A stretch of 64,000 nt of DNA, from the NCBI GenBank assembly GCA_026770705.1, contig JANJGN010000010.1, positions 23,808,001 to 23,872,000 of the forward strand, written 5' to 3'. The position numbers and the translations under genes are program-made. The notes under the pieces were generated by a model. The model saw only the letters and a list, made by a program, of their open reading frames with translations. It was not told the DNA's origin and did no database searches. Positions 2,851-30,990 of the stretch are shown in pieces. Within the stretch, counting starts at the first letter, position 1. Each line of letters opens with the position of its first letter. Origin of the DNA: Isurus oxyrinchus (taxonomy: Eukaryota).

Positions 2851-4285
2851 AATATATTGGCCTGTAGCTGTCTGTATAAGTTATCCATGATGAATACACC
2901 TCAAACTAAAATGCTTGTTTTTCTACTCTTTTTCCTTCTTGCCTTCTTCTCGTTTATTTTATGCTTTCCCATTTCCCTCTGTTCCCTTCTCCTCTGTCTG
3001 TTTCTTCAATAAAGGCATTTGTAAATGTAAAATAAATGAAAACACACATTTATTATTACTGAAATCTGAAAAGTCACAAAGGAGAAGAGAGTATCACAAA
3101 GGCGGACTTTGTTATTCCAAGTTGGAACTGTGAAATAAGAATCATGTAAGCATTCTGGACATTGGATGTGGAGACTGAGTAATGCAATCTGACTTCTTGT
3201 ATTATATGTAGGCATGAGATTTTTGCTTCTTCAGCTTCAGCACAGTTGCTTCCTCATGAGTTACACCAGCACGACCACAAGCCTCTCTACAGAGGAACTG
3301 ATGCAGAGGCAACGTCGTTCGTCTTTTTAACAAAACACAATGGCTTGCAGTATTTGACGATTAAACAAGTTGAGTCACTGTCTGAAAAGTTCTCGTCTTG
3401 CTGCTTATTTAAGAAGCACAATGTTATGTTGCAGTGTGGGTTGTGGACAATAGAAAGAGCCAAAGAAGCTGACTGGTGTTGAACAAAAGATAATCTCAAA
3501 CCAAACATTATTATGGCACCTTGTCATATGCAGGTGATGTGATTTTACCTGCAGAGTATCTTAATCTAACAAAGATCTGAAATGTGTTGACAATGTAATC
3601 TACATCACATCTTTGAAGTCACTCAAAACAGGATTTCCAGGTTAAAAGCATCTGTCCCATGGCAGCACCCCCCTGCCACCACCACTACATCCACCCTTAT
3701 AAATTAGATGAATCTTAAAGAAAACAGGATGCAACTATTGGACATGAAGGAATGATCAAATTTGTGTTTCCACATAGTTCTGCAGCTGCTACCTCCCTTC
3801 CGTGGACTCTTCTTCAGGAAGATCTGACAGTCATCACAGATAATAACTCCCTTTTACATTTGATATACTATGGATTACTTGCATCAATTAGAAAGACCAT
3901 CAATTACAGACATAAAATATAGACTGTTATATCTTCCATGCTAATGGTGATGCCAAACTATGGTAATAGTTTCAGATAACCAGCTAAGAATTAATAAAAA
4001 GAAGTAATATTTGTACTTAATTAGTGCCTCATTATTATGCTAAATGATTTGTTTCTCAAAGTGCTGCACACAATGATTAACACTTGAAATACAGAAACTG
4101 TTACAGAGGCAAACACTGTAGTCATTCCTCTACCAGCAACATCTGAGAAACAGTAAAGAAGTGAATGATGGATTAATTTATCTTTCTTCAGTGGTCTAGG
4201 TGATTATGACACCAGGAGAATTCCCTACTTTTCTTCCTCTAATGTCACTCGGATCTTTAATATCCACCTGATAAAACATTTGGGA

Positions 4286-4404
4286 CAAAAACAGGAAATG
4301 CTGGAATAACTCAGCAGGTCTAGCAGCCTCTGCAGAGAGAGAAACAGAGTTAACGTTTCGAGTCTGTATGACCCTTCTTCAGAACATATCAGAACATGTT
4401 CTTC
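4286..4404 (-). mobile_element. Penelope-derived mini-element with 13 bp TSD
   Basis: Penelope terminal sequence flanked by a perfect AAAACATTTGGGA at 4273-4285 and 4405-4417. Confidence 0.9.
4349..4385 (-). ncRNA. Minimal type I hammerhead ribozyme motif, canonical core
   Basis: Minus strand GUU-CUGAAGA-A-GGGUC(AUACA)GACUC-GAAA-CG-UU-AAC: core boxes, 5 bp stem II, palindromic ACGU stem III and 3 bp stem I. Confidence 0.75.
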
Positions 4405-4504
4405 AAAACATTTGGGATCTTTGTTCAACATCGGATCCAAAGAAGAGTATAAAAAACAAGGTAAAACTAACTGCATTAGAATGGTACCACTGAATAAAAT
4501 GATG

Positions 4505-4650
4505 CAACAATGACTTGTATTTATATGGCATCTTTAACATAGTAAAAGAAGCGTTATTTTTAAAAAACTGACATTGAGCCACATAAAGAGATATTAGGAC
4601 AGGTGACCAAAAACTTGGCCAAAGGGTAGGTTTGATGGAGTCTCTTAAAA
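4505..4650 (-). mobile_element. L2 LINE 3' tail
   Basis: ACTTGTATTTATATGGCATCTTTAAC...GGTGACCAAAAACTTGG, the same tail seen at ~48400 and ~57200. Confidence 0.65.
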
Positions 4651-5789
4651 CAATGTTGTCCAAGAGTATTTTGATGCTTGCCAAACTTATGGTGATCAGG
4701 TCATCATATTTGAAACATGATATAAAATATATGGACTATGAGTAAAATAAATGAATATAAGTTTGAGGTTTTAAACCATCAGTGATCGAGACCGATACAT
4801 TCACTACCAGAGTCAGGTAGCTTCAAAATGTTTTACAATCCAATTGTTCCGCAAAGCAAGCCTAATGCATACTCTCAGAGGATGGTAACAATCTGTTAAC
4901 TGAAGTGTTCTGTTTCTGATAGTGTGCTCAAGTTCATTTAAAACAAACAAATTTCCCCAAGAGTAAGCTGTCTCTATTTTGTCAGAAGTAATATATTAGG
5001 AGATTTGGGGAGGGAAAAAAAACAACAAATCTCCATGTATTGGTTTCTGTGCTCCAATTCTTACCTTGCTTATGTTCTGTCACCTGCCTTTTCTAAACAC
5101 AGTGTTTGGACATTTAATAATTCTTTGACTCATGGACAACCTCCTGTAATAAAAAGACAAAAAAGATTTGCATTTATATCTCCTTTTTCACAACCAATGA
5201 ATGTCACAGCATTCAGAGAGTTTAGACATTTCAAAGTTGTGTTTCTTTTCACCAATACTACAGTACTACATATTTAAACTCAAAGAAAGGAGTTAAAATA
5301 GAAGTTTGCCCAGGGTGCATTTCCCTAAGGCTGCTCATGGTTGTATTGATGTATTATCTAGAGTACCCATGCACCTCCATGGAAGAAAGCAGCCATGCAG
5401 AAATGCAACGTTAGACTGCCAAAAATAGAACAACTGGCTAATGGTGTACATTTTCCCACAACGGTGACCTTTGCCTGCTGCAGTACATACATGATATATC
5501 GTTTCTGTTGGTCAGGTTAATACTTGTAACAAAAAAAGTTAATGTGAATACATCATCATATCTCCTTATACTATAGATGTATATTTCCATGTAGCCAAGG
5601 AAATATAGAGGAGCAAGAAGGAACACCAGATTTGAGATACCATTTCAGGCAGACTTGAGAATGTTGAAGATGTTACCAGGTACTCAGTTAGGGAAGGGAT
5701 GGAATTTCCCTTTCCACTTTTCATTAAACATACATTGTGCCTTCATTCTGCTGGAAAGACTTTTTGTAATACTTGTTATTTCAACAGTT

Positions 5790-6430
5790 AGGAACATAGG
5801 AACAGGAGTAGGCCATTTGGCCTGTTGAGCCTGCTCCACCATTCAACTAGATCATGGCTGGTCTACTACCGCAACACCATTTTCCTGCGGTATCCCCATA
5901 TTCCTTGATGCAGCTACCATCTAAAAATCTATCGATCTCTGCCTTGAACATACTCAATGACTGAGCCTCCACAGCCCTCTGGGGTAGAGAATTCCAAAGA
6001 TTTACCATCCTCTGAATGAAGAAATTCCTCTTCATCTTAGTCTTACATGGCTTACCTCTTATTCTTATTCTGAGACTGTGTCCCCTGGTTCTACGCACCC
6101 TGCCACCACAGCAACCAGGAGAATCTTCCTGCACCTACCCTGTGGAACCCTGTAAGAATTTTATATGTTTCAATTATATCACCGCTCGTTCTTTTAAAAT
6201 CTAGAGAATACAGGCCCAGTCTCCTCAATCTCTCCTCATTGGACAACCCACCATCCCAGGGATCAGTTTGGTGAATCTTTGTTACACTCCCTCTATGGCA
6301 AGTATATACTTCCTTAAGTAAGGAGACCAAAATTGTACGTAATGCTCCAGATATTGTCTCACCAAGGCTCGATACAATTGCAGCAAGACAACTTTACTCC
6401 TGTACTCAAATCCTCTTGCAATAAAGGTCA
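5790..6430 (-). mobile_element. CR1 LINE 3' portion
   Basis: Minus-strand ORFs read EERLRRLGLYSL...GDIIETYKIL and RTRGHSL...RMVNLWNSLPQRAVEA; CR1 tail at 5790-5850. Confidence 0.92.
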
Positions 6431-6439
6431 ATTATATGG

Positions 6440-7975
6440 CAGTTAATGGCTAATGGAGTAAAGCCCACACAAAATCTGGAGTGGAGTCCCATTAGCAGAT
6501 TGGTGTTTCCTGCAAGTTAGGACCTTCTGGCAACTCCTGCAACTGGCCAGGCCCCCGATGTATAGTCTTTAGTCTTCCCTCTGGATGCCAGTCTACGAGG
6601 TCAAGAGGGTGGTACAGATTCTAGGCAAGTTGGCACCTTCCAAAACTGTGACTAGGTTGCATAGCAAAAAAAGAAAGGTAATCATTTGGCTTGGAAGCTG
6701 GAATCTGAGGACTATGTGCCCTGGCATTAACAACAGCTCACATTCCACAGCAAATGGACTCAAGATAGCCCTGATTGACCCAGAGCTACTCAAGCTTGTG
6801 TCGACCTTGCCTCTCCACTACAAATCAGATTAGCCGACACAGTCTCTATTTGTGAAGATAATTGCACCTTCTACTGACATGGAAAAGGCACTGAAGACCA
6901 CTGTGAGCATGGCGTAAGCTTTGCAGTAAGCAACTGGTTGATACAGTCAATTGAGTCACTAGTAGCAACCTCAGAGTGCCTCATCTTTCTGTGACTGTCA
7001 TCTGATGGAGGTGCAGTCAATATCATATGTGCCTGTGCACCAACTTTGTATGCCAGCATTTCAGTTAAGGTGCATTTCTATGACTCCTAGGTAATGTTCT
7101 GAGAAGCATTTCAAACGGCGAGAGGCTATCCATTCTGGGTGACTTCAATGTACATATTGGGGTGGCAAGCGATTCACGGCCAATATGACTTGGTGGCAAG
7201 ATAAATTATAATGGACAACACCTTCTTGAGTTTTATGCCCTGAATGAGCTCTGTGTCAATGGCACCTTTTTTTCAGGGCAGACATCACCACAAGGTTCAC
7301 AGCATCACCCAGAGCCTGGACATTGACATCAACTAGGCATGGTCATAATGAGAAGGCGCGATCTGCCCAGTATTCTACACACCCGCAATGCTCTACCACA
7401 GTGCAGATGCGGCACAGGCCATTGTCTTGTCAGAAGAACAGTGAAGGTGCACCCCTGAAAGTTTCACAGTTCCAAACACGATGGCCTGCCACACATCAAC
7501 ATCCCCTGCACAAGTAATGGTGTCAAATAGCAACACTTTGCACTGTTGCTAGAATGACTACTACCCACTAAAGGTTTACCAGGAAGTGCCACAGCTGGTA
7601 TCAGTGAAGTGTGGAAGTCATGAAGCTCAATCATTGATGAAGCAGCATTATTTGGACATGTGCAGCTGAGATGACGTCAGTCATTGATGCAAAAAACAAA
7701 GCCTTACCTGATGGAGAACATAAACCCAACACCTAAAACACAGCATGACCTAAAAGGAGCCAGGACAACTGTGCAAAAGACAAAATATACTGTTCAAATA
7801 AACACTGGATCAACTTATGACAGAAAATCCAAACTGCCTGTGACAATAGAAATCTATGAACAGTGTATGAAAGGATCAAGGGGACACTTGGTCCTACCAC
7901 ACCAAATTTGTACCCCTGAAGTCAGCAGATGGTGACGTACTCACCGACATAAGTAAACCATTGGGCTGAACACTG
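6440..7975 (+). mobile_element. Decayed RTE-clade LINE (endonuclease region)
   Basis: GSWNLRTM..., HGVSFAV, ICACAPTL and ILGDFNVHIG in broken frames, resembling an RTE/BovB APE domain. Confidence 0.7.
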
Positions 7976-8179
7976 ACCCCTGGGGAACTCCACTGCAAAC
8001 CTCCGCAAGTCTAAAAAACATCCATTAAAAACTGTTTCCTGTCATTCAGCCAATTTCGTATCCATGTTACTACTGTCCCTTTCATTCCATAAACTGTAAC
8101 TTTGTTTACAAACCTTTTGTGCGGCACTGTATCATGTGCCTTTGGAAGTCTATGTACACCACATCAACAGCACTACCTT

Positions 8180-8347
8180 AATATAAAAGCAAAATATTGT
8201 GGATGCTGGAAATCTGAAACAAAAACAGAAAATGCTGAAATAACTCAGCAGGTCTAACAGCATCTGTGGAGAGAAAGACAGTTAACGCTTTGAGTCCATA
8301 TGACTCTTCTTCAGCTCTGAAGAAGAGCCATACGGACTTGAAACATG
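8180..8347. mobile_element. Penelope-derived fold-back mini-element with ~14 bp TSD
   Basis: TSD AACAGCACTACCTT (8166-8179) / AACAGCATTACCTT (8348-8361). Back-to-back degenerate hammerhead motifs are centred at ~8315. Confidence 0.88.
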
Positions 8348-8570
8348 AACAGCATTACCTTCATCAGCCCTCTCTGTTACCTCCTCAAAAAACTCCAGCA
8401 AGTTAGTCAAACAGGATTTCCCTTAACAAATCCATGCTGGCTTTCCTTAATTAACCTGCATTTATCCATGTGATTAATAATTTTGTCCCAAATTATTTTT
8501 CTAGAAGTTTCCCCACCACCAAAGTTAAACTGACTGGCCTATAGTTGCTGGGCTTATCTATTTTTGAACA

Positions 8571-8970
8571 AGGGGGAGATGGTGACATAGTGGTAATGTC
8601 ATTGGCACTAGTGATGCAGAGGCCCAGGCTAATGCTCTGGGGACTTAGCTTCAAATCCTGCCATGGAAGCTGGTGGAATTTAAATTCAATTAATAATTTT
8701 TTAAAATCTGGATTTGAAAGCTAATTATGGTGACCATGAATCTATCACTGATTTTCATAAAAATCCATCTGGTTCACTAAATTTAGCAAAGGAAATCTGC
8801 TGTCCTTACCCGGTCTTGCCTACATGTGACTCCAGACCGACAGTAGCGTTGTTGACTTTTAACTGCACTCTGAAATAGCCTTGCAAGTCATTCATTTCAA
8901 GGGTAAATAGGGATGGGCAACAAATGTTGGCCTTGCCAGTGATGCCCACATCCATGAAAGAATTTTTTAA
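8571..8970 (+). mobile_element. tRNA-derived SINE (family with LINE-B 3' tail)
   Basis: Head TGGTGACATAGTGG...TTCAAATCC; tail GGGATGGGCAACAAATGTTGGCCTTGCCAGTGATGCCCACATCC. Confidence 0.85.
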
Positions 8971-10245: not shown

Positions 10246-10271
10246 AACCCAAATTCCTGGTGCCTTACCAA

Positions 10272-10392
10272 CTAAAATGTTAACTCTCTTTCTCTTGATG
10301 TCTCTGCAGATGCTGCCTGACCTGCTGTGCACCTACCAGCGATTTTCTATTTCTATTTCAAATTCCCATCGAGCGTCCTTAGCATTTTGCTA
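10272..10392 (+). mobile_element. Penelope terminal-repeat fragment (degenerate)
   Basis: GCAGATGCTGCCTGACCTGCTG...CCAGC...TTCAAATTCC, the reverse orientation of the motif at 2551. Confidence 0.65.
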
Positions 10393-10529
10393 CAGCTTGG
10401 GGGTAAAGTCGGCTCGGAAAAAAACAAAAAGTTAGGAAATGACTGGTACTGGTCCGAGCTGTAGTTCCACATTGAGATATACAAAACCATTTCCGACCAA
10501 TCCCGGTTATTTACCAAGTTTACAGTTTC

Positions 10530-13500
10530 GCCCCTACATCCCACCCCTCCCCCACCTCCACCTCCCCCCCTCTCCCTTCTCCCCTCTCTCTTCTCCCATC
10601 TCCCCCTCCCCTCCCTTCTCCCTCCCACCTCCGCTTCTCCCCCTCCCCACTTCTCCCCCCTCCCCCCTTCTCCCACCCCTCCTCTCCTCACTTCTCCCCC
10701 TCCCTCCATCCCCCCTTCCCCACCCTCCCCCCTTTGTCCCCTCTCCATGCCCTACCCCTCCCTCTCCTTCTCCCTTCTCCCCCCATTCTCCCTTCTCCTC
10801 CTCCCCTCCTCCCCCCTCCCTCCCTTCTCCCCCTCCCTCCCTTCTCCCCCTTCAGCCTCCATCCGCTTCTCGTTCTCCCTCCCTCCTCCTCCCTCCCCCA
10901 TTCTCCCTCCCTTCTCCCCTTCTCCCTCTTGCCCCCCCCCTCTCCCTTCTGCNNNNNNNNNNNNNNNNNNNNNNNNNNNNNNNNNNNNNNNNNNNNNNNN
11001 NNNNNNNNNNNNNNNNNNNNNNNNNNNNNNNNNNNNNNNNNNNNNNNNNNNNNNNNNNNNNNNNNNNNNNNNNNNNNNNNNNNNNNNNNNNNTCCCTCCC
11101 CCTTTCCCCCTCCCCCTCTTCACCCCCCTCTCTTCCCCCTCCCCCTCCCCTCTTCACCCCCACAACCCTATTCGCCCCCTCCCTCTCTCCCCCTCCCCAC
11201 TTCTCCCCCCCTTTGCCCCCCTCCTGACCTCTCCCCCCCGCTCCCGCACCCACTTCTCCCTTCCCCTTCTCCCCCCTTTCCCCCCCTCCCCGCTTCTCCC
11301 CCTCACCCCTCCCCCTTCTCCCCCTCACCCCTCCCCTCTTCTCCCCCTCTTTCCCCCCCACCATCCCTTCTCCCCCCTTCTCTCCCCTGACCCCCCCTTC
11401 TCCCACATCACTCCTCCTTCTACCCCCACCCCCCTTCTCCCCCCTCCCCACTCACCCCCCTCCCCCTCTTTCTCCCTTCTCCCCCATTCTCCCCTTCTCC
11501 CCCCTCACCTCCTCCCTCCCTCCCTTCTGCCCCACTCACCCCTTCTTCCCCCCTTCCACTCTCCCCCTCCCCCTCTCCCCGCTCCCCCCTTTCCCCTTCA
11601 CCCCTTCTCCCCTATTCGCCCCCTCCCCCTTTCCCCTTCACCCCCTCACCCCTATTCGCCCCCCTCCCTCTCTCCCCCTCCCCACTTCTCCCCCTTGCCC
11701 CCTCCTGCACCCACATCTCCGTTCCCCTTCTCCCCCCTATCCCCCTCCCCTCCCTTCTCCCCCTCACCCTTCCCCTCCTCCCCTCGCCCCTTCTCCCCGC
11801 TTCTCTCCCCTGACCCCCCTTCTCCCACCTCACTCCTCCTTCACCCCCCAACCCCCTTCTCCCCCCTCCCCACTCACCCCTCCCCCTCTTTCTCCCTTCT
11901 CCCCCTCTCCCTTCTCCCACCTTCTCTCTTCTCCCCCCTCCTCACCTCCTCCCTCCCCCCCTTCTCCCACCACATCCCTCCTTCTCCCCCACACCTTCTC
12001 CCCTCTCCCCACTCACCCCCTCCCCCTCTTTCTCCCTTCTCTCCCCATTCTTCCCCTCTCCCTTCTCCCCCCTCCTCACATCCTCTCTCCCTCCCTTCTC
12101 CCCCCTCCCCCTTTTCCCCCTCCCCCCTTTCCCTCTTCCCCCTCCCCTTTCCCTCTTCCCTCCCTCTTGCTCCCCCTCTTCCCCTCTCCCGCTTCCCCCT
12201 CCCTCTTCCCCCTCTTCTCACCCACCATCTTCCCTCCCTCTCCCTCTTCCTCCCCCTGCCCCACATCCCCCTCTCCCGCTTCCCCCTCTCCCTCTCCCCC
12301 CTCTCCCTCTCCCCCCACTCCATCTTCCCCCCTCCCTCTCCCCCACTCCCTCTTCCCCCACTCCCTCTTCCCTCTCCTCCCTTCCCTCTTCTCCCTTCCC
12401 CACTTCCCCCTCTCCCTCCCCCTTCACCCTCCCCCCTCTTCACCCCCAATCTCCCCACTCTTCCCCCTTCTCCATCTTCCCCCTCCCCTCTCTCCATCTT
12501 CCCCCCGCTCCCCCCTTTCCCTCTTCCCTCCATCTCCCTCTTCCGCTTCCCCCCTCCCTCTCCCTCCACTCCCTCTTCCCCCTCTTCACTCCTCCCCCTC
12601 TCCCTCCATCCTCTTCACCCTACCCCCTCTTCCCCCAACCTCCCCACTCTTCCCCCCTCCCCCTCTTCCCCCCACCCCCTCTTCCACCCTCCCCCTTCCC
12701 CCTCCCCCTCGTCCCCCCCAATACCCCCCCACTCTCTCCCCTCACCCCTTTCCCCTCACCCTCTCGCCCCCCACCACCCAACCCCTTCCCCTCTCCCACC
12801 CCCCCACCACATCCCCACCCCTTCCCCCAATCCCCCCCACTCTCTCCCCCCACCCCCTTCCCCTCACCCCCACCCCCCTTCCCCTCACCCCCCCACCCCC
12901 TTCCCCTCTACCACTTCCCCAACCCCTTCCCCCTCACCCTCTCCTCCCCACCCTTCCACCACTTCCCCACCTATGTCCTCACACACATTCCCCCCACCCC
13001 CCTTACTCTCTCCCCCCCCACCCACTCCCCACCCTCCCCCTTTCACCTCCCCCTCTCCCCCTTCCTCTCCCCCTCCACCCTACCCTCCCCCCTCCCCCCA
13101 CTCTCCCCCTTTCCCCTCACCCCCCTTTCCCCCTCACCCTCTTCCCCCCTTTCCCCCGCACTCTCTCCCCCCTTTCCCCCTCACCCTCTCCCCCGCTTTC
13201 CTCCCACCACCATCTCCCCCTCCCCCACTCTCCCCTGCCCCCTTTCCCCTCTGCCCCTTTCACCTCACCCTCTCCCCCTTTCACCTCACCCTCTACCCCC
13301 CTTTCCCCTCACCCTCTCCCCCTTTCACCTCACTCTCTANNNNNNNNNNNNNNNNNNNNNNNNNNNNNNNNNNNNNNNNNNNNNNNNNNNNNNNNNNNNN
13401 NNNNNNNNNNNNNNNNNNNNNNNNNNNNNNNNNNNNNNNNNNNNNNNNNNNNNNNNNNNNNNNNNNNNNNNNNNTTTCCCCTCTCCCACCTTTCCCCCTC

Positions 13501-14340
13501 TCCACTCCCCCCTTCCCCTCTCCTCCCCCCCTTCCCCTCTCCTCCCCCCTTCCCCTCTCTCCCCCTTCTCCCACCCCACTTTCCCCCCTTTCCCCTCTTC
13601 CCCCTCGTCTCTCCTCCCCCCTTCCCCTCTCTCCCCCTTCCTCCCCCTCCTTCCCACCCCACTTCCCCCCCTTCCCCCTCCTCCCTTCACCCCTCCTCCC
13701 CTCCCCTCTCCCCTCCTCCTTCCCCTCTCCACTCCCCCCTCTCCCTCTCCCCCCTCCCCTATCACTTTCCTTTCCCCCCTCTCCTCTCCTTCCTCCTCCC
13801 CCTCGCCTCTCACCCCCCTCCCCCCTCTCTCCTCCCCTCTCACCCCCTCCCCCTCTCTCCTCCCCTCTCACCCCCTCCCCCCTCTCTCCTCCCCTCTCAC
13901 CCCCTCCCCCTTCTCTCCTCCCCCTTTCCCTTCCCCCGCCATTTCCCCTCCCTCCCCCCTCTCTCCTCCCCCTTTCCCTTCCCCCGCCATTTCCCCTCCC
14001 TCCCCCCATTTTCCCCTTCCTCCCCATTTCCCCTCCCCCCACCCCCCATTTCCCCTCCCCCCACCCCCATTTCCCCTCCCCCCCACCCCCACCCCCCCAC
14101 CCCCCCATTTCCCCTTCCTCCCCATTTCCCCTCCCCCCACCCCCCCATTTCCCCTCCCCCCACCCCCCATTTCCCCTCCCCCACCCCCCATTTCCCCTCC
14201 CCCACCCCCCATTTCCCCTACCCCCATTTCCCCACCCTCCCCTTCCCTCTCCCCCCATATTTCCCGTCCCCATTTCGCTTCCCCATTTCCCTTCCCCTCT
14301 CTCCCCCCCATTTCCCTTTCCCCATTTCCCTCCCCCTCCA
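10530..14340. repeat. C/T-only low-complexity tract containing two assembly gaps (10953-11092, 13340-13474)
   Basis: Almost exclusively C and T on the plus strand, with internal duplications; N runs seen directly. Confidence 0.97.
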
Positions 14341-15700
14341 TTTCCCCTCTCTACCCCCCATTTCCCTCCCCCTCCATTTCCCCTCTCTACCCCAATTTCC
14401 CCTCTCTACCCCCCCAGATTTCTCTTCTCTACCCCCCAATTTCTCCTCTCTACCCCCCCAATTTCTCCTCTCTACCCCACCCCCCAATTTCTCCTCTCTA
14501 CCCCCCATTTCTCCTCTCTACCCCCCATTTCTCCTCTCTACCCCCCCATTTCTCCTCTCTACCCCCCCAATTTCTCCTCTCTACCCCACCCCCCAATTTC
14601 TCCTCTCTACCCCCCCCATTTCTCCTCTCTACCCCCCCCCCCCCCATTTCTCCTCTCTACCCTCCCATTTCTCCTCTACCCCCCCCAAATTTCTCCTCTC
14701 TACCCCCCCAATTTCTCCTCTCTACCCCACCCCCCAATTTCTCCTCTCTACCCCCCATTTCTCCTCTCTACCCCCCATTTCTCCTCTCTACCCCCCCCAT
14801 TTCTCCTCTCTACCCCCCCCCATTTCTCCTCTCTACCCCCCCCCATTTCTCCTCTCTACCCCCCCATTTCTCCTCTCTACCCCCCCCCACAATTTCTCCT
14901 CTCTACCCCCCCCATTTCTCCTTTCTACCCCCCACAATTTCTCCTCTCTACCCCCCCCCCCCACAATTTCTCCTCTCTACCCCCCCCCCCACAATTTCTC
15001 CTCTCTACCGCCCCCCCACAATTTCTCCTCTCTACCCCCCCCCCCACAATTTCTCCTCTCTACCCCCCCCCCACAATTTCTCCTCTCTACCCCCCCCTCC
15101 ACAATTTCTCCTCTCTACCCCCCCCCACAATTTCTCCTCTCTACCCCCCCCCCCACAATTTCTCCTCTCTACCCCCCCCCCACAATTTCTCCTCTCTACC
15201 CCCCCCACAATTTCTCCTCTCTACCCCCCCCCCACAATTTCTCCTCTCTACCCCCCCCAATTTCTCCTCTCTACCCCCCCAATTTCCCCTCTCTACCCCC
15301 CCAATTTCTCCTCTCTACCCCCCCAATTTCTCCTCTCTACCCCCCCCACACACAATTTCTCCTCTCTACCCCCCCGCAACCACAATTTCTCCTCTCTACC
15401 CCCCCCCCCCCAACCACAATTTCTCCTCTCTACCCCCCCCCACCACCACCACCACAACAATTTCTCCTCTCTACCCCCCCCCCCCCACCACAATTTCTCC
15501 TCTCTACCCCCCCCCAACAATTTCTCCTCTCTACCCCCCCCCCCAACAATTTCTCCTCTCTACCCCCCCCCCCAACAATTTCTCCTCTCTACCCCCCCCC
15601 CCAACAATTTCTCCTCTCTACCCCCCCCCCCCAACAATTTCTCCTCTCTACCCCCCCCCCCCCCCAACAATTTCTCCTCTCTACCCCCCCCCCCCCAATT
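14340..15700. repeat. Minisatellite (A)ATTTCTCCTCTCTAC+(C)n, unit ~21-30 bp, roughly 55-60 copies
   Basis: Near-invariant core separated by variable poly-C runs; copy number estimated from array length. Confidence 0.97.
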
Positions 15701-15719: not shown

Positions 15720-16640
15720 CAGAACTGAGCACGTAGGGGCGGGGCTAACTGTACGCGGGACGTGCGTCGGGAGGGAGGGAGGGCAATTTGTTGGGAACGG
15801 CGGGGCGTTGCGTGCGCGCGGCGTGGAAGGATTATGGGTAGGCCGGCGGCGCGCACGTATGGGAGACACGGGACGCGCGGACATTTTGTCGGGATCGCGG
15901 ACGCCCTCCAGGGAGAAAGCGGGAGAGAGGGAGCGGAGTATGTGAGGCGAAAGGAAGAAAGCTCGGTGTGAGCGGTCCCGGGGGGGGCATTCACCAGGCC
16001 GGAGAAGGAGGAGGAAGAAGAAGGAGAAGAAGCGGGGGGCAGGGAGAAGAAGGAGGAGGAGGAGGAGGGTGTACTTATTTATTATTTAGATTCCTCTCTC
16101 GGTGTTTTCCCCGGTCGGGATGAGCCGGCGGGTCGGCCTGTCGCTGCTGCTGTTCTGAGGTCCCCGCAGTCTCCGGTGTTATTTTATCTACAGTTAGAAA
16201 CATTATTTATTAGGTTTACACCCCTCCCTCCCTCCCTCCCTCCCCGGCACCACCTCACCTTTCTTCCCCGGGGGCTGAGTGTAGGCCGCCCGCCACACAC
16301 CGGCCTCGAGTCCGTCTCTTCCCCTCACCACCTTCTCCCCCCCCCCCCCCCCCCAAAACCCACTTTCCTTCCACCCGGCCTCCTGCCGAAGATGATGTGC
16401 GAGGTGATGCCGACCATCAGCGAAGACACGCTGAGCCCGCGGGGCTCGCAGTACGGCGCCGAGACCGAGGCCAATTTCGAGCAGCTGATGGTGAACATGC
16501 TAGACGAGCGCGACAAGCTGCTGGAGAGCCTGCGGGAGAGCCAGGAGTCGCTGGCCCTGTGTCAGGCCAAGATGCAGGAGGCTTTCCACGAGAGGGACTC
16601 GCTGCAGAGGCAGCTCAACACCGCCTTACCTCAGGTAGGA
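15720..16640 (+). promoter_or_regulatory. CpG island / promoter and 5' UTR region of the liprin-alpha gene
   Basis: Dense CpG (CGTGCGCGCGGCG, GGCGGCGCGCACG) in a CpG-poor window; GC box GGGGCGGGGC at 15736-15745; overlaps the first coding exon. Confidence 0.85.
16392..16634 (+). CDS. ppfia4: Liprin-alpha first coding exon (81 codons), most similar to liprin-alpha-4
   Basis: [12 protein letters not shown]...[26 protein letters not shown]...[16 protein letters not shown], then donor CAG|GTAGGA after LPQ. Family is certain. The paralog call rests on ANFEQ and [11 protein letters not shown], which match PPFIA4 as recalled rather than PPFIA1/2 (SHFEQ, RLLDTLRETQE). Confidence 0.85.
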
Positions 16641-18764
16641 GGGAAGGGAGCCACCTAAACAACCAACACACCCCATCCCTTTCAAATAAACACTCACTCC
16701 AGGCCTTTGCCTTCCTCCCTGTCTCCTTCTGCTACTTTGTTAGCAACTGCAGGCACTAAAAGCTGCCAACTTTCATAAAACCATTTTTAAAAAAAAAACT
16801 TCTGTCTAAATCCAAAGGGAAGGGAGGGGGTGCTCAGCTCTTCTAGTAGCAAACCTTTTTGTGGTCTCTTTCTGAGTTAAGATTCCCTCCAACAAACAAA
16901 AACACACGCACACAACGACACTTTGTGCAAGAATGTGACAATTCACCTTAATTTAACCTTTTTTCTTGTAAAGGGGGTCATCTACTCGGGATCGAGTGGA
17001 ATGTAATTATTTCATTACAAAGCAACGCACTCCTTCCCCCGCCCCGTTACCTTCACTCAAAGGCTGCTTTTCCCAAGGGCATGGAGTAGGTACTTTCTGA
17101 ACACAATCTCTTTTAGGAACAAAACCCATTGTGTTTAAATATATCAAATACAAGTTTTTGGTGACGAGGTGATTTCAAATGCTATGTCAGTCTGGCAGTC
17201 ATTGTTAGCGATAAGATATGCTTGCCTCACAGTGGTACAGCTAGGATATAAACGCATCTTGAAACTTTGGGCAAGCTAGTTGTTTATTATTAAAGATGCA
17301 TTGATGATTTTGTTACTTGTTGCCTCTAAACTAGGGGATTTGGTAATCTGGCATTTACATCCAGTCGTCTGTGCTGCTGTTTGTGCACTTGCATAATTAG
17401 ATTGTGAATTGTGTTCCCAGTTTTTTAGAAATTTTGTATTGTTTTGCATTGTGAAGATAGTTATCCTTCAAGGAGAGTTGGACTACATCAGTTACACAGT
17501 TGATGTAGACTTTCATCTATGGTCGTCATGTAATCTAATTGGAAAGGCATATGCAGTGGTTTGGAACAGAAGATATTAAATTTAAATGCTGGATGAAACT
17601 TGTGCATACCGCACACCCTTTCCAAATCTAAAATAGCACATTGTTCTTTAAAGTATATGCAAGTGTTTCCGTTCCAATTGTGATATGTGATTTCTGGATT
17701 TGACTACAGCCATTTGTATTATAGTCAGCTGAACTAAATTGGAATAATGTATATGTTAGTTATAACTTGTATTGTTAGACTCAGTGAACAAACAGTTTTG
17801 GTTTGAAATTGATCAGAGCAGGAAGTGTTGAACAAGCTTTACTTTCTCAACAACTGATTGTTTTATACCTCTTTAATTATTTGACCCGAAACAAATAATG
17901 CTGCACCTAGTTACATAGAACAGTAGCAGAGAGCCTTTTATTTATATTGCGTTTTACAACTTGTCTAGATCATTTTGAGGCTTTAGACACATTTATGTTA
18001 CTGGTGCTGGGTCAGTCGAAATAAAAGCAAATCTTACTGTAGACTTCAGATTTTTCGGCATATAAATAATATACATCATGGGAATAAAGAGATGTGAAAA
18101 TATCAAGCAATCTGAAGAATTGCAACACTATGACTCTGTCCTTAATGCTGGTTATAACTGGGAATTGTATCTTGAGGATTATTGGCTTAAAGGTCCCCTC
18201 TTTCTATTTCAAAATGTAATCTGTGTGTGTAGTTTGGGTTATGGAATCAGTACATTCTTTGGGTCTAAACGGGTATTACTTGTGTGAAAGGCAGGTTTTA
18301 CAATTTCTGAGCAGTTCATTATTTTGAAAGAATGCAATTTAATACTGTAAAAGTGTTTTACAGTCAGCTGGCATTAGTACCAGATTTAACTGCTTGCATG
18401 CATAGGTTGCACAGTTGTTAAACTAACACGTTATTAGGAAGTGTTGGATTTGTTATGGGTGCCAAAATGTTTTACCCAGCCAATAATAAAACAACACCGT
18501 GGCCTTTGGTGTACTTTTTTTCATTTAAAAAGGGCAAATATGTGTGTACACAGATTAAAGTTTTTTCCAAAATTGTGATGTAGTTTTATTTCTAAGTTGT
18601 TGGACCTTATGGTGTGGGGCTGCCAGCGGCAAGTAACAATGTACTGAAATAAAGACTTCAACCAACCATATAGAGGTAAAAGTTGTTCATAATACTACGA
18701 CAGTTGTTTACCATGCTGTGCATTGAATGAAAAGCTGGACTGATTTTTAAATCTCTGACTGAAC

Positions 18765-20127: not shown

Positions 20128-22596
20128 TATAAAAGCAAAAAACTGCGGATGCTGGAAATCCAAAACAAAAACAAAAATACCTGGAAAAACTCAGCAGGTC
20201 TGGAAGCATCTGTGGAGAGGAGCACAGTTAACATTTCAAGTCTGCATAACTCTTCAACAGAACTAAAGAAAAATAGGAAAGGGGTGAAATATAAGCTGGT
20301 TTAAGGGTGGGGGGGGGTGGGGGGGGTGGTGTTGGGTCAAGAAGAGCTAGGTAGAGGGCCAGTGATAGGTGGAGATAACCAAAAGATGTCACAGACAAAA
20401 GGACAGAGGTGTTGAAAGTGGTGATATTATCTAAAGGAATGTGCTAATTAAGGGTAGAAAGCAGGACGAGCAAGGTACAGATAGCCCTGGAAAAACTCAG
20501 CAGGTCTGGCAGCATTGGCGGAGAAGAACAAAGTTGACGTTTCGAGTCCTTGTGACCTTCAACAGATTCTCGTTCTGTTGAAGGGTCATGAGGACTCGAA
20601 ACGTGAACTTTGTTCTTCTCCACCGATGCTGCCAGACCTGCTGAGTTTTTCCAGGTATTTCTGTTTCTTGTTTTGAATTTCCAGCATCCGCAGTTTTTTG
20701 TTTTTATATTTATACAGATAGCCCTAGTGGGGGTGGGGTGAAGGAATTGAAAAAGGCTAAAAGGTACAGCTACAACAATGGATAGGAATACATTTAAAAA
20801 TAATGGAAATAGGTGGGAAAAGAAAAATCTATATAAATTATTGGAAAAAACAAAGGAGGGGGAAAATCGAAAAGGGAGTGGGGATGGAGGAGAGAGTTCA
20901 TGATCTAAAATTATTGAACTTAATATTCAGTCCAGAAGGCTGTAAGGTGCTTAGTCGGAAGATGAAGTACTGTTCCTCCAGTTTGCGTTGAGCTTCACTG
21001 GAACAATGCAGCAAGCCAAGGACGGACATGTGGGCATGAGAGCAGGGTTGAGTGTAGAAATGGCAAGCAACAGGGAGGTCTGGGTCATGCTTGCAGACAG
21101 ACCAAAGATGTTCTGCAAAGCGATCACCCAGTCTGCGTTCAGTCTCTCCAATGTACAGGAAACCGTATTGGGAGCAACAAATGCAGTAAACTAAGTTGGG
21201 GGAAGTGCAAGTGAAATGCTGCTTCACTTGAAAGGAGTGTTTGGGCCCTTGGACGGTGAGGAGAGAGGAAGTAAAGGGGCAGGTGTTGCATCTTCTACGG
21301 CTGTGTGGGAAGGTGCCGTGGGAGCGGGTTAAGGTGTAGGGGGTGATGGAGGAGTGGACCAGGGTGCCACACAGGGAACAATCCCTGCGGAATGCCGCCG
21401 GGGTGTGAAGGGAAGATGTGTTTGGTGGTGGCATCATGCTGGAGTTGGCGGAAATGGCGGAGGATGATCCTTTGAATGCAGAGGCTGGTGGGGTGATAAG
21501 TAAGGATAAGGGGGACCCTATCATGTTTCTGGGAGGGAGAAGAAGGTGTAAGAGCGGATGTGTGGGAAATGGGTCGGACACGTTTGAGGGCCCTGTCAAC
21601 CACTGTGGGTGGAAAACCTCAGTTAAGGAAGAAGGAGGACATGTCAGAGGAACTGTTTTTGAAAGTGGCATCATCAGAACAGATGCGACAGAGGCAAAGG
21701 AACTGAGAGAATGGGATGGAGTCCTTACAGGAAGCGTGGTGTGAGGAACTGTAGTCGAGGTAGCTGTGGGAGTCGGTAGGCTGAGGTAGCTGTGGGACTC
21801 GGTAGGCTTGTAATGGATATTGGTGGACAGTCTATCACCAGAGATTGAGACAGAGAGATCAAGGAAGGGAAGGGAAGTGTCAGAGATGGACCATGTGAAA
21901 ATGATACAGGGGTGGAAATTGGAAGCAAAATTATTAAGTTTTTCCAGGTCCAGATGAGAGCGTGAAGCAGCACCGAAGTAATCATTGATGTACCGGAGAA
22001 AAAGTTGTGGAAGGGGGCCAGAGTAGGACTGGAACAAGGAATGTTCCACATTCCCCATAAAGAGACAGGCATAGCTGCGGCCCATGCTGGTACCCATAGC
22101 CACACCTTTTATTTGGAGGAAGTGAGAGGAGTTGAAGGAGAAATTGTTTAGTGTGAGAACAAGTTCAGCCAGACGGAGGAGAGTAGTTGTGGATGGGGAT
22201 TGTTCGGGCCTCTGTTCCAGGAAGAAGTGGAGAGCCATTAGACCATCCTGGTGGGGGATGGAGGTGTGGAGGGATTGGATGTCCATGGTGAAGAGGAGGT
22301 GGTTGTTGTCAGGGAACTGGAAATTGTTGATATGATGTAGGTGGGAAGGGACTGGACAAGGGGAGAGAGAATGGAGTCAAGATTGCAAGAAATGAGTTCC
22401 GTGGGGCAGGAACAGGCTGCTGGGACAGTTCTGTTTGTGGATTTTGGGTAGGAGTTAGAAGCAGGCTGTTGGAGTTTGGGAGACTATCAGGTTGGAAGCT
22501 GTGGAAGGAAGATCTTCAGAAGAGATGAGGTCAGTAACAGTCCTGGAAACAATGGCTTAATGTTCAGTGGTGGGGTCATGGTCCAGGGAGAGGTAG
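20128..22596 (-). mobile_element. Penelope-like retroelement P1 (5'-truncated; RT + GIY-YIG endonuclease)
   Basis: MDIQSLYTSI, QIKGVAMG, FLRYINDYF, LPFLDL and VYCICCSQYGFLYIGETERRLGDRFAEH...PSGLN; 3' terminal repeat at 20128-20890. Confidence 0.93.
20489..20712. mobile_element. Fold-back hammerhead mini-element nested in P1, 13 bp TSD
   Basis: Inverted arms around ~20570; TACAGATAGCCCT at 20476-20488 and 20713-20725. Confidence 0.9.
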
Positions 22597-22622
22597 ACTG
22601 GCATGTATTATATAATATTTAG

Positions 22623-24957: not shown

Positions 24958-25950
24958 AAGCAAGTGGCAGATGGCCCTAGTGGGGGTGGGGTGGGGGGAA
25001 GGGATCGAAATGGGCTAAAAGGTGGAGATAAAACAATAGATCAAAATAAATTTAAAAATAGGTGCAGAAGGTGCAACACCTGCTTTATCCCCCCACCCCT
25101 CCTCACCGTCCAAGTGCCCAAACACTCCTTTCAAGTGAAGTAGCACTTCACTTGCACTTCCCTCAATTTAGTCCACTGCATTCGCTGTTCCCAATGCGGT
25201 CTCTTCTACATTGGAGAGACCAAACGCAGACTGGGTGACCGCTTTGCGGAACACCTTCAGTCTGTCTGCCAGCATGATCCAGACCTTCCTGTCACTTGCC
25301 ATTTCAACACACCACCCTGCTTTCATGCCCACATGTCGGTCCTTGGCCTGCTGCAATGTTCCAGTGAAGCTCAACGCAAACTGGAGGAACAGCACTTCAT
25401 CTTCTGACTAGGCACTTTACAGCCTTCTGGACTTAATATTGAGTTCAACAATTTCAGATCATGAACTCTCTCCTCCATCCCCACCCCCTATCCGATTTCA
25501 CCCCCCCCCCAAATAATTTATAATTTAAAAAAAAGTTTTCTTTTCCCACTTATTTTTAAATTTATTTCGATCTGTTGTTCTATCTCCACCTTTAGCTCAT
25601 TTCAATCCCTCCCCCCACCCCCACTAGGGCCATCTGCCACTTGCTTGTCCTGCTTGCTACCCTTAATGTCCCCATTAGCACGTTCCTTAAATAATATCAC
25701 CACCGTCAACACCCTTTTGTCCTTTTGTCTATGACATCTTTGGCAATTTCTTCTTTGCCTGCACCTATCACTGGCCCTCTATCCAGCTTTACCTGTCCCA
25801 CCCCCCTCTACCAGCTTATATTTCACCTCATTTCTCTATTTCCTTAGTTCTGATGAAGAGTCATATGGACTCTAAACGTCAAATGTGTTCCTCTCCGCAG
25901 ATGCTGTCAGACCTGCTGAGTTTTTCCAGCTATTTTTGTTTTTGTTTCAA
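24958..25950 (+). mobile_element. Short Penelope copy (GIY-YIG end + 3' repeat) with a 5' inverted segment
   Basis: VHCIRCSQCGLFYIGETKRRLGDRFAEHL on the plus strand; 24958-25062 is an inverted copy of ~25545-25650. Confidence 0.9.
25846..25884 (+). ncRNA. Hammerhead motif, sense to the host gene, G12 mutated
   Basis: AGUU-CUGAUGA-A-GAGUC(AUAUG)GACUC-UAAA-CGUC-AAAU; GAAA>UAAA, so likely inactive. Confidence 0.6.
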
Positions 25951-26019
25951 CTTTTAGTATGTTGTGTTAACATTTGCATGCTTCAGCAGCACTTATGCAC
26001 CACAGTAAACCTGTTTTTA

Positions 26020-26220
26020 AAAAGAGAAAATGCTGGAAATGTTATACTCGGGTCAGGCAGCGCCTGTGGAGACAGTGAGTTAAGGTTGCAATTCTGTTGG
26101 AAGGTCATTGGCCTAAGCCATTAGTTCTATTTCTCAACAGATGCTGCCAGACCTGCTGATAATTTCCAATGTTTTCTCTTTTTATTTTAGTTTTCCAGCA
26201 TCCACAACATTTTATATTTA
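26020..26220. mobile_element. Penelope-derived fold-back mini-element (degenerate)
   Basis: AAATGCTGGAAAT...GGTCAGGCAGC left arm; CAGATGCTGCCAGACCTGCTGA...TTCCAGCATCC right arm. Confidence 0.75.
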
Positions 26221-27443
26221 AAAACTGTTTTATATTGTACTTTTAAAAGGGATTTTAACATTGCATTTTAGGAAAAGCATTTTGGATTGCACCTTCAGGA
26301 TTATTATTGGAAAGCCCTGGTAATTTTTAAAGAGAGTTAGCTAATGCAGCAGTGAAAAAGTGGAGAAATGGTTGGATGCAGGAGAAAGGGAAACCCAATA
26401 TTATAACTGGGTGACCGCAGAAGTCAAATAATAGTTTTAAATTATGGATTAGTTGGACAGGTAGGATTTCCTGCATGTTGTTGGGTATGGGGTGGGGGCG
26501 GGAGGAAGAGAGAATCTGAAGTCTGTAGGAAGAAAAGGCAGCTTGGGTATGTAACAGGCAGCCTGTTCAGTACCCACAGTTATCTGCCCCTGCTGAGATT
26601 GAAAGTTAACCCCATTTGTGAACAATAAGGCATTGATTTGTTTGAAATGATTTTGTATATTGATTTTTACTGCAAACATGCTCAGCTGCTTGCATTGCAT
26701 CTGAAAAAATTCTCAAGGTATTTGAAGTGTGAAGTGAGTTAAGCGCAGAGCTGATTCTTGATAGTAAAAGTCTTTCTTTGTTGAAAAGTCAGAGAATCTG
26801 TTTACTCTGTGGATTGGATTTGATTTGGATAATGCTGATTCAGGCTAAATCATTGGTAACTATTTTTCTGTTCCATTTCAAAGTACCTTGCCTTATAGAT
26901 ATTATGTTAGTGCCACCGATGATGAAGCAAACTTGCCAGATTCCCTGTAACCAGGAGGATCGAGTTTTAAAAAAAAACAGTTGAGCCGGCGGCATTAATA
27001 CAACTCTTAGCCTAATAGGAAAGCAGCCTTACTTTGTCACTAATTTGAATATATATCCCTGATAGGAAAAATGCATCTGTTTGCATCGTATTTGGTTGAA
27101 TCTTAAAACCAATTTCATACCAAGTTTGCAAACTGGGCTTTCTTCACTTAAAATGTTTAATGATACAAATTAGCACCAGTTAGTACAGTTTGAACTAGAA
27201 AACATTTCAAATCAAAAGCAATTTAAATTGATTGTAATATGCAATCAATTTAGGGGGAGATGATGTTTTGAGATTTAGATTGGTTTAATTTTCCACAATA
27301 GAAAATGTGGAACAAAAAAATTACATTTTTCTCCAGTCAGCTGTTGCTCAGATCTGCAGTTCCATTACCCTTCTCTGCAGGGGAGAGGGGGAGATCAGGA
27401 GAGATGGCTGTTGCTGGCAGTGTGCCAGCGATGGTGAATCCCT

Positions 27444-27599
27444 TTACAGGCCCAGCTTGGTCCTTCTCCAGTGTCTCCTCTTGGAGTTGTATCTGATCTT
27501 GTTGCCAGTTTTCATGTGGATCCACTGCGGAGTTGGTCGGTTTTGCTTCTTCATCTTGGTGAGGAATTGCTTGATCCTGAAGGTTTTGTGGGATAGCAT
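27444..27599 (-). pseudogene. rpl39: Processed (intronless) copy of 60S ribosomal protein L39, full 51-codon frame open
   Basis: [51 protein letters not shown] versus canonical [51 protein letters not shown]. No introns; ATTAAA on the minus strand at 27284-27289. Confidence 0.93.
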
Positions 27600-27627
27600 G
27601 CCTAACCTCCACTCCAGCTGCCTCAAC

Positions 27628-28022
27628 GGTGACGTAGTGGTAATATCACTGGGCCAGTAATCCAAAGGCCCAGGCTAATGCACTGGGGGCAAGGGTTCAA
27701 ATCAAGGGTTCCACCACAGCAGCTGGTGGAATTTGAATTTAATTAATATAATCTGAAATTGAAAGCTAACCACAGTAATGATGACCATGAAACTATAACC
27801 GATTGTCGTAAAAAAACCATCTGATTCACTAATGCTCTTTAGGGATGTAAATCTGCCATCCTTACTGGGCCTGGCCTACATCTGACTCCAGACCCACTGC
27901 AATACGATTGACTCTAAACTGCCCTCTGAATGGCCCAGCAAGCCACTCAGCTCAAAAGATGGGCAACATGCTGGCCTTGTCAGCAACGCCCACCCCCACA
28001 TCTCATGAAAGAATTAAAAAAA
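27628..28022 (+). mobile_element. tRNA-derived SINE (family with LINE-B 3' tail)
   Basis: GGTGACGTAGTGG...GGTTCAAATC head; body and tail match 8571-8970. Confidence 0.85.
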
Positions 28023-28714
28023 TGAAGTCTGTGTTACTAGTGTAGTAGGCATGAAGTCAGGGTTTTTAAAATCTGTCTCCTGTCTTGGATTATAAATTGA
28101 CCCAAATTTTGTTCCCTATATGTTCTATAAAGTTGGAATTTTATTGTTCTCCTTATTGCGCTGTCTTTCATTAGAAAGAGTTATTGAATAGTTAGGCTTG
28201 TGATGCAAGAATAGTTTTGTACTCAAAAGAAAGATCAAATATTGTTGGTCTCCTGGCAAACGAAACCATTGGAAATCCTTGTCTTTTTCAGGAAAATGAT
28301 TTGTCAAACTAGTGTAATTTGGCTGAGGGTAGTGGTTTTGTGTCAGTTAATTTTGAGATCTCTCCATTTTGTGTCACATATTTAGAGCATCTTTTCACCA
28401 GTATTATTTGTAAGATACTGGAACAGGTTCATTCTCAAACTTATTTCTCCCTCAAGGTTTGATGGGGGATCTGAATGACTTCTCAAAGCCTTCTGTTATA
28501 TTCAAGTCGACAGCTGGTATTTCTACAATTGTGCAAATGGCAGGAATAAATCTGGTTCCATGATGTTTAACACTATTTTCTCTTGCACAGGTTCTTTTTG
28601 ATACAGCACTAATGGAATATTTAGAGTTGGGAGATGCCTAGCAGTAAAAAAAAAATGGAGAATGCACCTTATCACATCTGACTCACTTCATGAACCAAGT
28701 TTTAATTTTTAAAA

Positions 28715-30990
28715 TTTATCCTTTGGGATGTGGGCATTGCCAGCTAGATGAGCATTTATTGCTCATCTCTCATTGTCCTTGTGGTGATCTTGAATCACGT
28801 TCTTGAACTGCTGCAGTTCATGTGATGCAGCTATACCCACTGCTGTAACGAAGGGTGTTCCAGGATTTTGACCTAGTGACAGTGAAGGAACAATGATATA
28901 CTTCCAAGTCAGAATGCAGCGTGGCTTGGAGGGGGACTTGCAGGTGGTGGTGTTCCCATGGATTCGGTGTCCTGCCTTTCTAGGTGGTAGAGGCCACAGG
29001 TTTGGAAGGTGCTGTTGAAGGAGCTTTGGTAAGTTGCTGCAATGCATCTTGTCAGTGGCACACAGTTGCCACTGTGTGCATTGATGGTGGAGGGATTGAA
29101 TGCGTAAGGTGTTGGACTACTTTGTCCTGGGTGTTGTTGAGCTTCTTGAGTGTTGGAGCTGCACTCATGCAGGCAAGTGGAAAGTATTCCATCACACTCC
29201 TAACTTGTGCCTTGTAGATGGTGGACAAGCTTTGGGGATTCAGAAGGTGCCGCAGGATTCCCAGCCTCTGACCTGCTCTTGTGGTCACAGTATTTATATG
29301 GCTGGTCCAGTCCAGTTTCTGGTCAATGGTAACCCCCAGGATGTTGTTGAGGATTTAGCAGTAGTAAAGCCATTGAATGTTAAGGGGAGATGATTAGATA
29401 ATCTCTTGGAAATAGTCATTGCCTGGCACTTGTGTGGCGTAAACGTTACTTGTCACTTATCAGCCTGAACCTGAATGTTGTCTGGGTCTTGCTGCATATT
29501 GGCATTGGGTGCTTAAGTACCTGAGGAGCCTGGAATTGTGCTAAATATTTTGCAACCATCAGCAAACAACCCAATGTCAGACCTTACGATGGAAGGAAAG
29601 TCATTGACAAAGCAGCTGAAGATGGTTGGCCTCAGGACACTACCATGATGGATTCCTGCGCTGATGTTCTGGGACAACCACAACTATCTTCCTTTGTGCT
29701 AGGTATGACTCCAACCAGTAGATAATCTCCCCCTCCCCGATTCCCATTGACTTCAGGTTTAAGGCTCCTTGATGCCACACTTGGTCCTTGATGTCAAGGA
29801 CAGCTACTCTCACCTCACCTCTGGAGTTCAGCTCTTTTGTTCATGTTTGGACTTAGGCTATAATGAGGTCTGGAGCTGAATGTCCCTGGTGGAGTCCAAA
29901 CTGAATGTCAGAGCAGGTCATTGTTGAGTAAGTACCCCCTGATAGCACTGTCGACAATTCCTTCTATCACTTTGACCAAGAGTAGACTGATGTAGCAGTA
30001 ATTTGCTGGGCTGGATTTGTCCTGCTTTTGTGGATAGGAGATACCTGGGCAATTTTCCACATTGCTGGGTAGGTGGCATGTTGTAGCCACACTAGAACAG
30101 CGTGGCTTGGGGCATGGCTAGTTCTGGAGCTCAAGTCTTCAGCACTGAGGCTGGAATGTTGTCGGGGCCCATAAGTTTGCAGTATTCAGTGCCACCTTGA
30201 TAACACATGGAGTGAATCAAATTGGCTGAAAACTGGCATCAATGATGCTGGGGACTTCAGGAAGTGTCCAAGTTCATCATACAGTCAGCACTTTTGGCTG
30301 AAGATAGCTGTAAATGCCTAAGCCTTGTCTTTTGCACTGATATGCTGGGCTCCTACATTGAGGGTGGAATATTTGTGGAGCCACCTCCCCCAGTTGGTTG
30401 TTTAATTGTCCAGTGCTATTCATGACTGGATGTGGCAGGACTGCAGAGCTTGGGTCTGATCTGTTGGTTGTGGGATAGCTTAGCTCTGTCAATTGCATGC
30501 TGCTTTTCCTGCTTGTCAAGCAGGTAGTCCTGTGTTGTACCTTCACCAGGCTGATACCTCATTTTTAGATAAAAGCAAAATACTGCCGATACTGGAAATC
30601 TGAAACAAAAACAGAAAATGCTGGTAAAACTCAGCAGGTCTAGCAGCATCTGAGGAGAGAGAAACTGGTTAACGTTTCAAGTCCGTATGACCCTTCTGAA
30701 GGGCCATACGGACTCGAAACATTGACTCTGTTTCTCTCTCCACAGATGCTGCTAGATCTGCTGAGTTTTTGCAGCATTTTCTGTTTCTGTACCTCGTTTT
30801 TAGGTATGCTTGGTGCTGCTCCTGGCATGCCCTCCTGCACTCTTCTATGAACCGGGGTTGATCCCCCCCCTCCCCCTTGATGGCAATGGTAAAGTGAGGG
30901 ATATGCCAGGTCATGAGGTTACAGATGGTGTTTGAAAACAACTCTACTGTTGCTGATGGCCCACAGTGCCTCAAGGATCCCTAGTTTTGA
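28715..30990 (-). mobile_element. LINE-B copy (~2 kb, decayed RT), interrupted by a Penelope mini-element
   Basis: IYKAQVRSVMEYFPLA, KQDKSSPANY and WHIPHFTIAIK...QPRF; same 3' tail as the 9100 copy. Confidence 0.88.
30569..30789. mobile_element. Fold-back mini-element with ~14 bp TSD
   Basis: TACCTCATTTTTAG (30555-30568) / TACCTCGTTTTTAG (30790-30803); arms mirror around ~30697. Confidence 0.9.

Follow-up and report, generated by a model that had tools for sequence, protein, structure and literature searches.

The 64 kb window analysed here (Isurus oxyrinchus, contig JANJGN010000010.1, positions 23,808,001 to 23,872,000 of a 4.98 Gb genome) contains four tiny elements without an open reading frame (ORF), which we refer to as stubs E1 to E4 and which are made only of the end of a Penelope-like element (PLE), namely its pseudo-long terminal repeat (pLTR) plus a short "tail". 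We are confident that such stubs are independent truncated insertions and not self-copying, and E1 to E4 are very probably the smallest outcomes of the normal insertion process of an autonomous Neptune-type PLE, one event each. They are a known kind of insertion, real and abundant, and not a new mobile family; their layout has already been published, and the value of the present set lies in its mechanistic patterns. The new detail is that no pairs with two tails were found among 25 and that 29 of 105 arms stop at the 5′ edge of a hammerhead ribozyme motif, ~30 nt behind a TATA-like box. The original prediction had offered two options, a non-autonomous retrozyme-like family or repeated abortive insertions, and the second is the one that fits.

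E1, E2, E3 and E4 lie at 4286-4404, 8180-8347, 20489-20712 and 30569-30789; all predicted coordinates were reproduced, as were the target-site duplications (TSDs) of 13-14 bp and the exclusively Penelope content of all four. Perfect 13 bp direct repeats flank E1 (4273-4285 and 4405-4417) and E3 (20476-20488 and 20713-20725), whilst the 14 bp repeats around E2 (8166-8179 and 8348-8361) and E4 (30555-30568 and 30790-30803) contain one mismatch each. Random intervals of equal geometry reached the score of the weaker pairs (E2 and E4) in 3 of 454 cases and that of the perfect pairs (E1 and E3) in none. To look for empty sites, the left and right flanks were used as separate queries against the window together with 130 fetched loci. 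Uninterrupted paralogous host copies, in which the two flanks overlap over a length equal to the duplication, were recovered for E2 (seven copies at 14 bp), E3 (six at 13 bp, with one further copy at 17 bp) and E4 (11 copies at 14 bp). The empty-site check thus held for three of the four; for E1 no empty host site was found in the same material, none of six fetched copies of the neighbouring SINE-like repeat aligned with its left flank and none of 39 other genome matches reached the insertion site. E1 had been placed inside a DeuSINE, which is incorrect, as the SINE-like repeat starts only ~90 bp to its right. The hosts proposed for E2 and E3 stand: E2 interrupts what reads as a CR1-type reverse transcriptase (RT), of a family we take to be CR1, and E3 sits within an older Penelope-like copy (20129-22596, minus strand), whilst the host of E4 is a LINE-like repeat.

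An inverted copy had been predicted for most of the elements and is present in E2, E3 and E4 but not in E1. The latter is a single minus-strand arm (4286-4404) that begins at an inner start site, has no tail, ends just past the hammerhead and carries only a small local duplication or palindrome of ~19 bp (4386-4404). E2 joins a tail-bearing arm (8180-8314, minus strand) to an inverted arm of 33 bp (8315-8347, plus strand), a hammerhead remnant that ends near the cleavage triplet. E3 and E4 are full fold-backs, E3 consisting of a tail-less arm (20489-20566, minus strand), five junction letters that fit neither arm (20567-20571) and a tail-bearing arm of the young subfamily with the core CUGUUGA and a mutated triplet (20572-20712, plus strand), and E4 of a tail-bearing arm that ends within the hammerhead core (30569-30697, minus strand) and a tail-less inverted arm with an incomplete core (30698-30789, plus strand). 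Elsewhere in the window there is a fifth, older fold-back at 26019-26220 (a tail-less arm plus a tail arm, 11 bp duplication with one mismatch), a short single tail arm at 50180-50297 (14 bp duplication with one mismatch) and more old stubs with no clear duplication at 2552-2730, 10275-10368 and 47269-47430.

In sequence, the arms of E1 to E4 are 77-94% alike to the termini of the window's long copies, at 20129-22596, 35480-38588 and 38868-41493. The second of these, a 3.1 kb insertion, has the same plan as E4: a long 5′-truncated arm with tail, pLTR and a broken RT/GIY-YIG ORF (35480-38288, minus strand), a tail-less inverted arm of ~300 bp (38288-38588, plus strand) and a 16 bp duplication (35465/38580). 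It also contains a TATA-like box (35639-35645, minus strand), a putative promoter element, ~30 nt upstream of the short-arm stop. The third (38868-41493, minus strand) is a long single arm without a tail, flanked by an 11 bp duplication (38862/41499) and with a CX4CxxC linker before GIY-YIG. The predicted agreement in TSD size between stubs and large copies holds for these two, whilst two further long copies in the window yielded no duplication. ORF pieces of the long copies match RVT_1 (E 5.6e-6) and GIY-YIG (E 6.5e-4), with both matches falling below the Pfam threshold; the broken ORFs have 139 longer relatives, mostly with RT and 27-49% identical among those listed, and the two that were scanned both encode RT plus GIY-YIG. 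In ORF-bearing copies elsewhere in the genome the tail runs directly into the ORF, which is the partial-tandem pLTR layout. A CX2-5CxxC linker between RT and endonuclease (EN) is described as defining Neptune/Nematis PLEs (PMC8557442), and the CX4CxxC linker lies in this position here; going by this motif, the parent would be an autonomous PLE of the Neptune or Nematis clade, with Neptune as a provisional label. A "Poseidon" label for the parent was dropped after the linker had been checked. The RT/GIY-YIG source, partial-tandem pLTR, tail at one end, variable duplication and minimal hammerhead are those of EN-containing (EN+) Penelope insertions, and the proposal that the stubs were inserted independently by the Penelope RT/GIY-YIG machinery, with true target duplications and only the look of miniature inverted-repeat transposable elements (MITEs), is upheld.

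E4 as a query returned 6136 candidates, and the 40 that were scored all matched over nearly the full length, 39 others than E4 at 83-89% identity. As such a search selects for likeness to E4, an unselected sample was taken from 20 large contigs (C1-C20) as 80 evenly placed 10 kb stretches (800 kb), and arms were mapped against long reference copies. The sample contained 108 arms, made up of 25 head-to-head pairs, 35 short and 20 long single arms, the remainder being edge-cut. The pairs span 134-1819 bp, 19 of the 25 being 260 bp or less, and the small stubs grade by size into the long copies in a continuum up to 1.8 kb. Scaled from the sample, small fold-backs number ~118,000 genome-wide (71,000-185,000, Poisson error only).

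This extrapolated abundance and the 39 near full-length matches among the 40 scored would suit a self-propagating non-autonomous family, a MITE-like or retrozyme-like palindrome moved in trans, for at least some copies, and non-autonomous PLEs are described (PMC8557442; bioRxiv 10.64898/2026.07.22.740005). We consider such a family very unlikely. The junction could be measured in 48 of 57 small elements, and no two of the 48 strings are identical; within the unselected sample, the 13 junctions each have a different length. Arms were compared in the 47 of 54 elements with enough overlap (seven were dropped for short overlap), and non-majority bases were common to an element's own arms more often than between elements, both in the older subfamily (2.3% vs. 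1.05%, 36 elements, 0 of 10000 permutations) and in the young one (1.4% vs. 0.19%, 11 elements, 1 of 10000 permutations). Across the 47 elements none of 86 columns separates tail arms from second arms, and between elements a tail arm differs from another tail arm by 12.7% and from a second arm by 13.2%. The likeness of own arms without arm-specific sites indicates that there was no palindromic master, which would give the opposite pattern. Neither a shared junction with uniform size nor arm-specific inherited changes, as in a MITE-like family, were seen; the units are single or head-to-head, never the head-to-tail units with a complete hammerhead of a retrozyme, the junction generally interrupts the ribozyme core and the stubs lack the promoter box. 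The retrozyme-like family of the original prediction is thus not supported.

Several observations weigh against this conclusion. One junction type of 27 nt recurs (loci L045, L009, L018 and L028, and also E4 with L003), as does one of 38 nt (E2, L007 and L012), and an element's own arm is its nearest partner in only 7 of 36 older and 4 of 11 young elements; the sharing between arms could also reflect subfamilies of the same age or later conversion between arms. The elements with recurrent junctions carry different subfamily variants, and all except L045 and the window's own come from the E4-selected set. With a sample as small as 47 elements there is still room for a minor self-copying lineage. 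A separate curiosity is the junction at L060:3387-3633, where a segment of the element lying ~30-50 nt further upstream has been incorporated through a template jump on one and the same RNA.

One PLE of the anole is reported to nick and extend both strands, beginning at two sites separated by the length of a tail; it is predicted to be dimeric and is described as not needing ribozyme cleavage (PMC11167929). Taken with the arm patterns, these data point to two primings on one RNA, run-off and end joining as the simplest model for the stubs. The GIY-YIG nuclease would nick both target strands 11-16 nt apart, and reverse transcription would be primed within the element RNA from each 3′ end, aided by pairing over a few bases, at the tail site for one end and ~35 nt further in for the other. 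Both cDNAs would then run towards the 5′ end of the RNA, mostly stopping at the start of the hammerhead; this stop would be the transcription start of the pLTR promoter, so that the product would be a run-off like strong-stop DNA. End joining of the two cDNA ends would give a head-to-head palindrome with one tail, and a single priming alone would give single stubs such as E1. To two primings on one template we give an even chance, and the view that arm ends accumulate because of the transcription start is held a little less firmly than that. The stubs would be dead on arrival, having no TATA-like box and, in most cases, no intact ribozyme.

The tails bear on how the second arm is made. Of the 25 sample pairs, 16 combine a tail with the inner start, three a tail with another start and six have no tail, whilst none has two tails (3.6 expected, P ~0.02). 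A single tail, and the variants common to both arms, would also follow from snap-back self-priming, discussed in PMC3846280 and PMC8557442, in which a cDNA bends back to prime synthesis from its own 3′ end, with itself as template, and a nuclease then takes off one of the two tails on resolution; short palindromes or microhomology at some junctions and several pairs with near-equal arm reach also agree with it. However, it is the tail-less arm that extends further 5′ in most sample pairs (13 of 19; 13:5, one tie), in two cases by >500 nt (676 vs. 140 and 1777 vs. 78), so that this arm cannot always be a snap-back copy of the tail arm; moreover, many junctions carry extra letters, not overlaps. 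We regard snap-back as rather unlikely, with the reservation that the reach bias is statistically weak (p 0.096) and runs 1:2 among the window elements, which counts against two primings.

Arm ends were counted for 105 arms, leaving out three edge-cut arms, and 29 of them end 0-9 nt upstream of the first C of the hammerhead core. Per nucleotide at risk this is 29/518 at the 5′ edge of the hammerhead, against 21/1541 just before and 10/1270 just after, a four- to sevenfold excess. Young copies (at least 90%) show the same peak (13 of 45), and single arms with clean duplications also stop there. These two observations, and the persistence of long fold-backs, make it highly improbable that stubs are long insertions that later suffered a central deletion, a process that could blur junctions. 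Inverted repeats are unstable, which counts in favour of such deletion. Inspection by eye of 28 long copies that were correctly anchored showed a TATA-like box ~30 nt upstream of the stop in 24, the spacer varying between copies; E1 to E4 lack the box.

The same pile-up could instead come from a stall at a protein-bound or folded hammerhead, or from a splice acceptor, and not from a transcription start. A hand count of ORF-bearing copies placed 19 of 46 ends short of position 120, six at 120-160 and 21 beyond, so that 21 of the 27 that reach position 120 pass 160, compared with 30 of 79 sample arms (by hand); as many ORF-bearing copies run past the supposed start, many templates would have to be tandem read-throughs. 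In the older subfamilies a YAG follows a pyrimidine tract at the stop site and could be a 3′ splice site, and a 3′ splice site or intron end at helix I of the hammerhead is described in D. virilis (PMC4209133). These points weigh against a transcription start. On the other side, the peak of the ends is located on the distal (5′) side of the motif, not at the helix that RT would meet first, the RNA stability of the hammerhead region is ordinary (z +0.1 to +1.2 in three long-copy stretches), the TATA-like spacing is kept while the spacer varies, and no upstream exon sequence common to the arm ends was seen by eye. We view a stall or splice acceptor as conceivable, on the doubtful side. The 5′ ends of the ORF-bearing copies (L131-L167 and L112-L127) form further clusters close to the two start sites, at positions 41-58 (8 of 46 copies, of which two are duplicates) and 0-27, such as might be expected if RT were halted by a bound protein.

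The letters just outside the tail match the continuation of the element's ORF (A19 G16 A18 G14 of 32 in the young subfamily), which indicates that the template extended past the tail and that priming used short pairing. Short copies match this continuation in 44 of 76 letters and long ones in 17 of 44 (p 0.058, post hoc and classed by hand), which is suggestive only of a better match in the short copies. Against pairing stands the in vitro account of the anole Poseidon element (PAc), which reports no homology between primer and RNA (PMC11167929), unlike the pairing bias in the genomic junctions. In contigs assembled from four presumed-RNA runs and aligned to L127:400-1500, the pLTR and tail are far deeper than their surroundings and depth follows copy number; assembled contigs show neither starts, strand, level nor absence, and none of those in this interval was listed with a go-back joint.

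The original prediction had placed a hammerhead on both strands, which is true of remnants only: a complete minimal motif is present on one strand in E1 and on neither in E2 to E4. The E1 motif (4349-4385, minus strand), a putative ribozyme by descriptor match, has the core CUGAAGA, a helix II of 5 bp, a helix I of 3 bp, no loop III and a GUU triplet. Among the 57 small elements the complete motif occurs on both strands in two, on one strand in six and on neither in 49, and the descriptor fits three of eight long copies tried (all young) as well as E1. Having no loop III and a helix I of 3-4 bp, the motif is not a canonical type I hammerhead with a helix III. An Rfam scan of the window gave 12 weak matches, none at gathering score and none to a hammerhead. 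The older subfamily has the core CUGAAGA and the young one CUGUYGA; in the latter (42 arms, e.g. window 35605-35611) U replaces the conserved A at core position 6 (CUGUUGA or CUGUCGA), which may make it an inactive or variant ribozyme. E2 suggested that the ribozyme cut (position 101/102) might set the start of second arms, but this idea was rejected, since an arm start at 86-98 occurs in just 3 of 25 sample pairs.

MITEs are short, palindromic, present in high copy and flanked by TSDs, and in these respects the stubs resemble them; the stubs differ in their unequal arm starts, variable size and junction, variable TSD of 11-16 bp and retroelement origin. The typical Penelope structure is given as inverted pLTRs with a tail on one arm and a TSD (PMC3846280, PMC8557442), and the complex EN+ insertions described there share with the stubs an inverted 5′-truncated arm, the TSD and the pLTR hammerhead, as well as a tail of 30-40 bp at one end (~35 bp on one arm in the stubs). 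In contrast to these canonical insertions, both arms of the present insertions have often been reduced to the pLTR end, leaving no ORF, and such stubs make up a large share of insertions. The order of RT followed by a C-terminal GIY-YIG with a CX4CxxC linker is that described for Neptune/Nematis PLEs (PMC8557442). PAc, from Anolis carolinensis, is alike in having a pair of internal RT start sites separated by a tail length, an upstream minimal hammerhead and ends that do not follow the cleavage site (PMC11167929), whereas it belongs to another clade, and in the present element the frame from the ATG in the hammerhead is stopped in all four copies read and genomic junctions pair with the target. 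Minimal hammerheads of metazoan PLEs are presented as type I without loop III and with a palindromic centre, as here, and as occurring mostly as single motifs from truncated PLEs, with dual motifs 100-700 bp apart on opposite strands (PMC4209133); the young subfamily departs from them in its U at core position 6. Non-LTR retrozymes (PMC7229834; bioRxiv 10.64898/2026.07.22.740005) are likewise short, non-coding and PLE-related, with a type I hammerhead and long TSDs, but are described as head-to-tail tandems with canonical active motifs and circular RNAs, whereas stubs are head-to-head with minimal, mostly broken motifs. In the literature searched, which covered subscription journals thinly and is not proof of absence, we found neither a proposal of twin priming or run-off for PLEs nor a description of the stub family as a MITE.

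How PLEs generate their layout is still called undefined in the account of PMC8557442, and ~10^5 minimal independent events constitute a large natural data set on this question. The absence of second tails, the derivation of both arms from one source and the stops behind a TATA-like box provide predictions for the anole in vitro system. Tentatively, the stubs might be the Penelope equivalent of strong-stop DNA, fixed ~10^5 times, with a dimeric enzyme priming from both strands near the 5′ end of its own mRNA; if true, this would explain the class-wide signature of an inverted copy plus one tail and would map the promoter from DNA alone. In practice there is a risk of annotating the stubs as MITEs or as microRNA hairpins (the microRNA matches from Rfam were all sub-threshold), and the stubs add ~24 perfect-looking hairpins per Mb to introns.

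Two other features of the window were noted. A coding exon at 16429-16658 has a coiled-coil look and no PDB or Pfam match, and resembles what we take to be the start of liprin-alpha; if so, E3 and E4 are intronic and would be co-transcribed as hairpins. The region at 10500-15700 is a long C/T-rich low-complexity tract with two N stretches, and yields spurious long ORFs.

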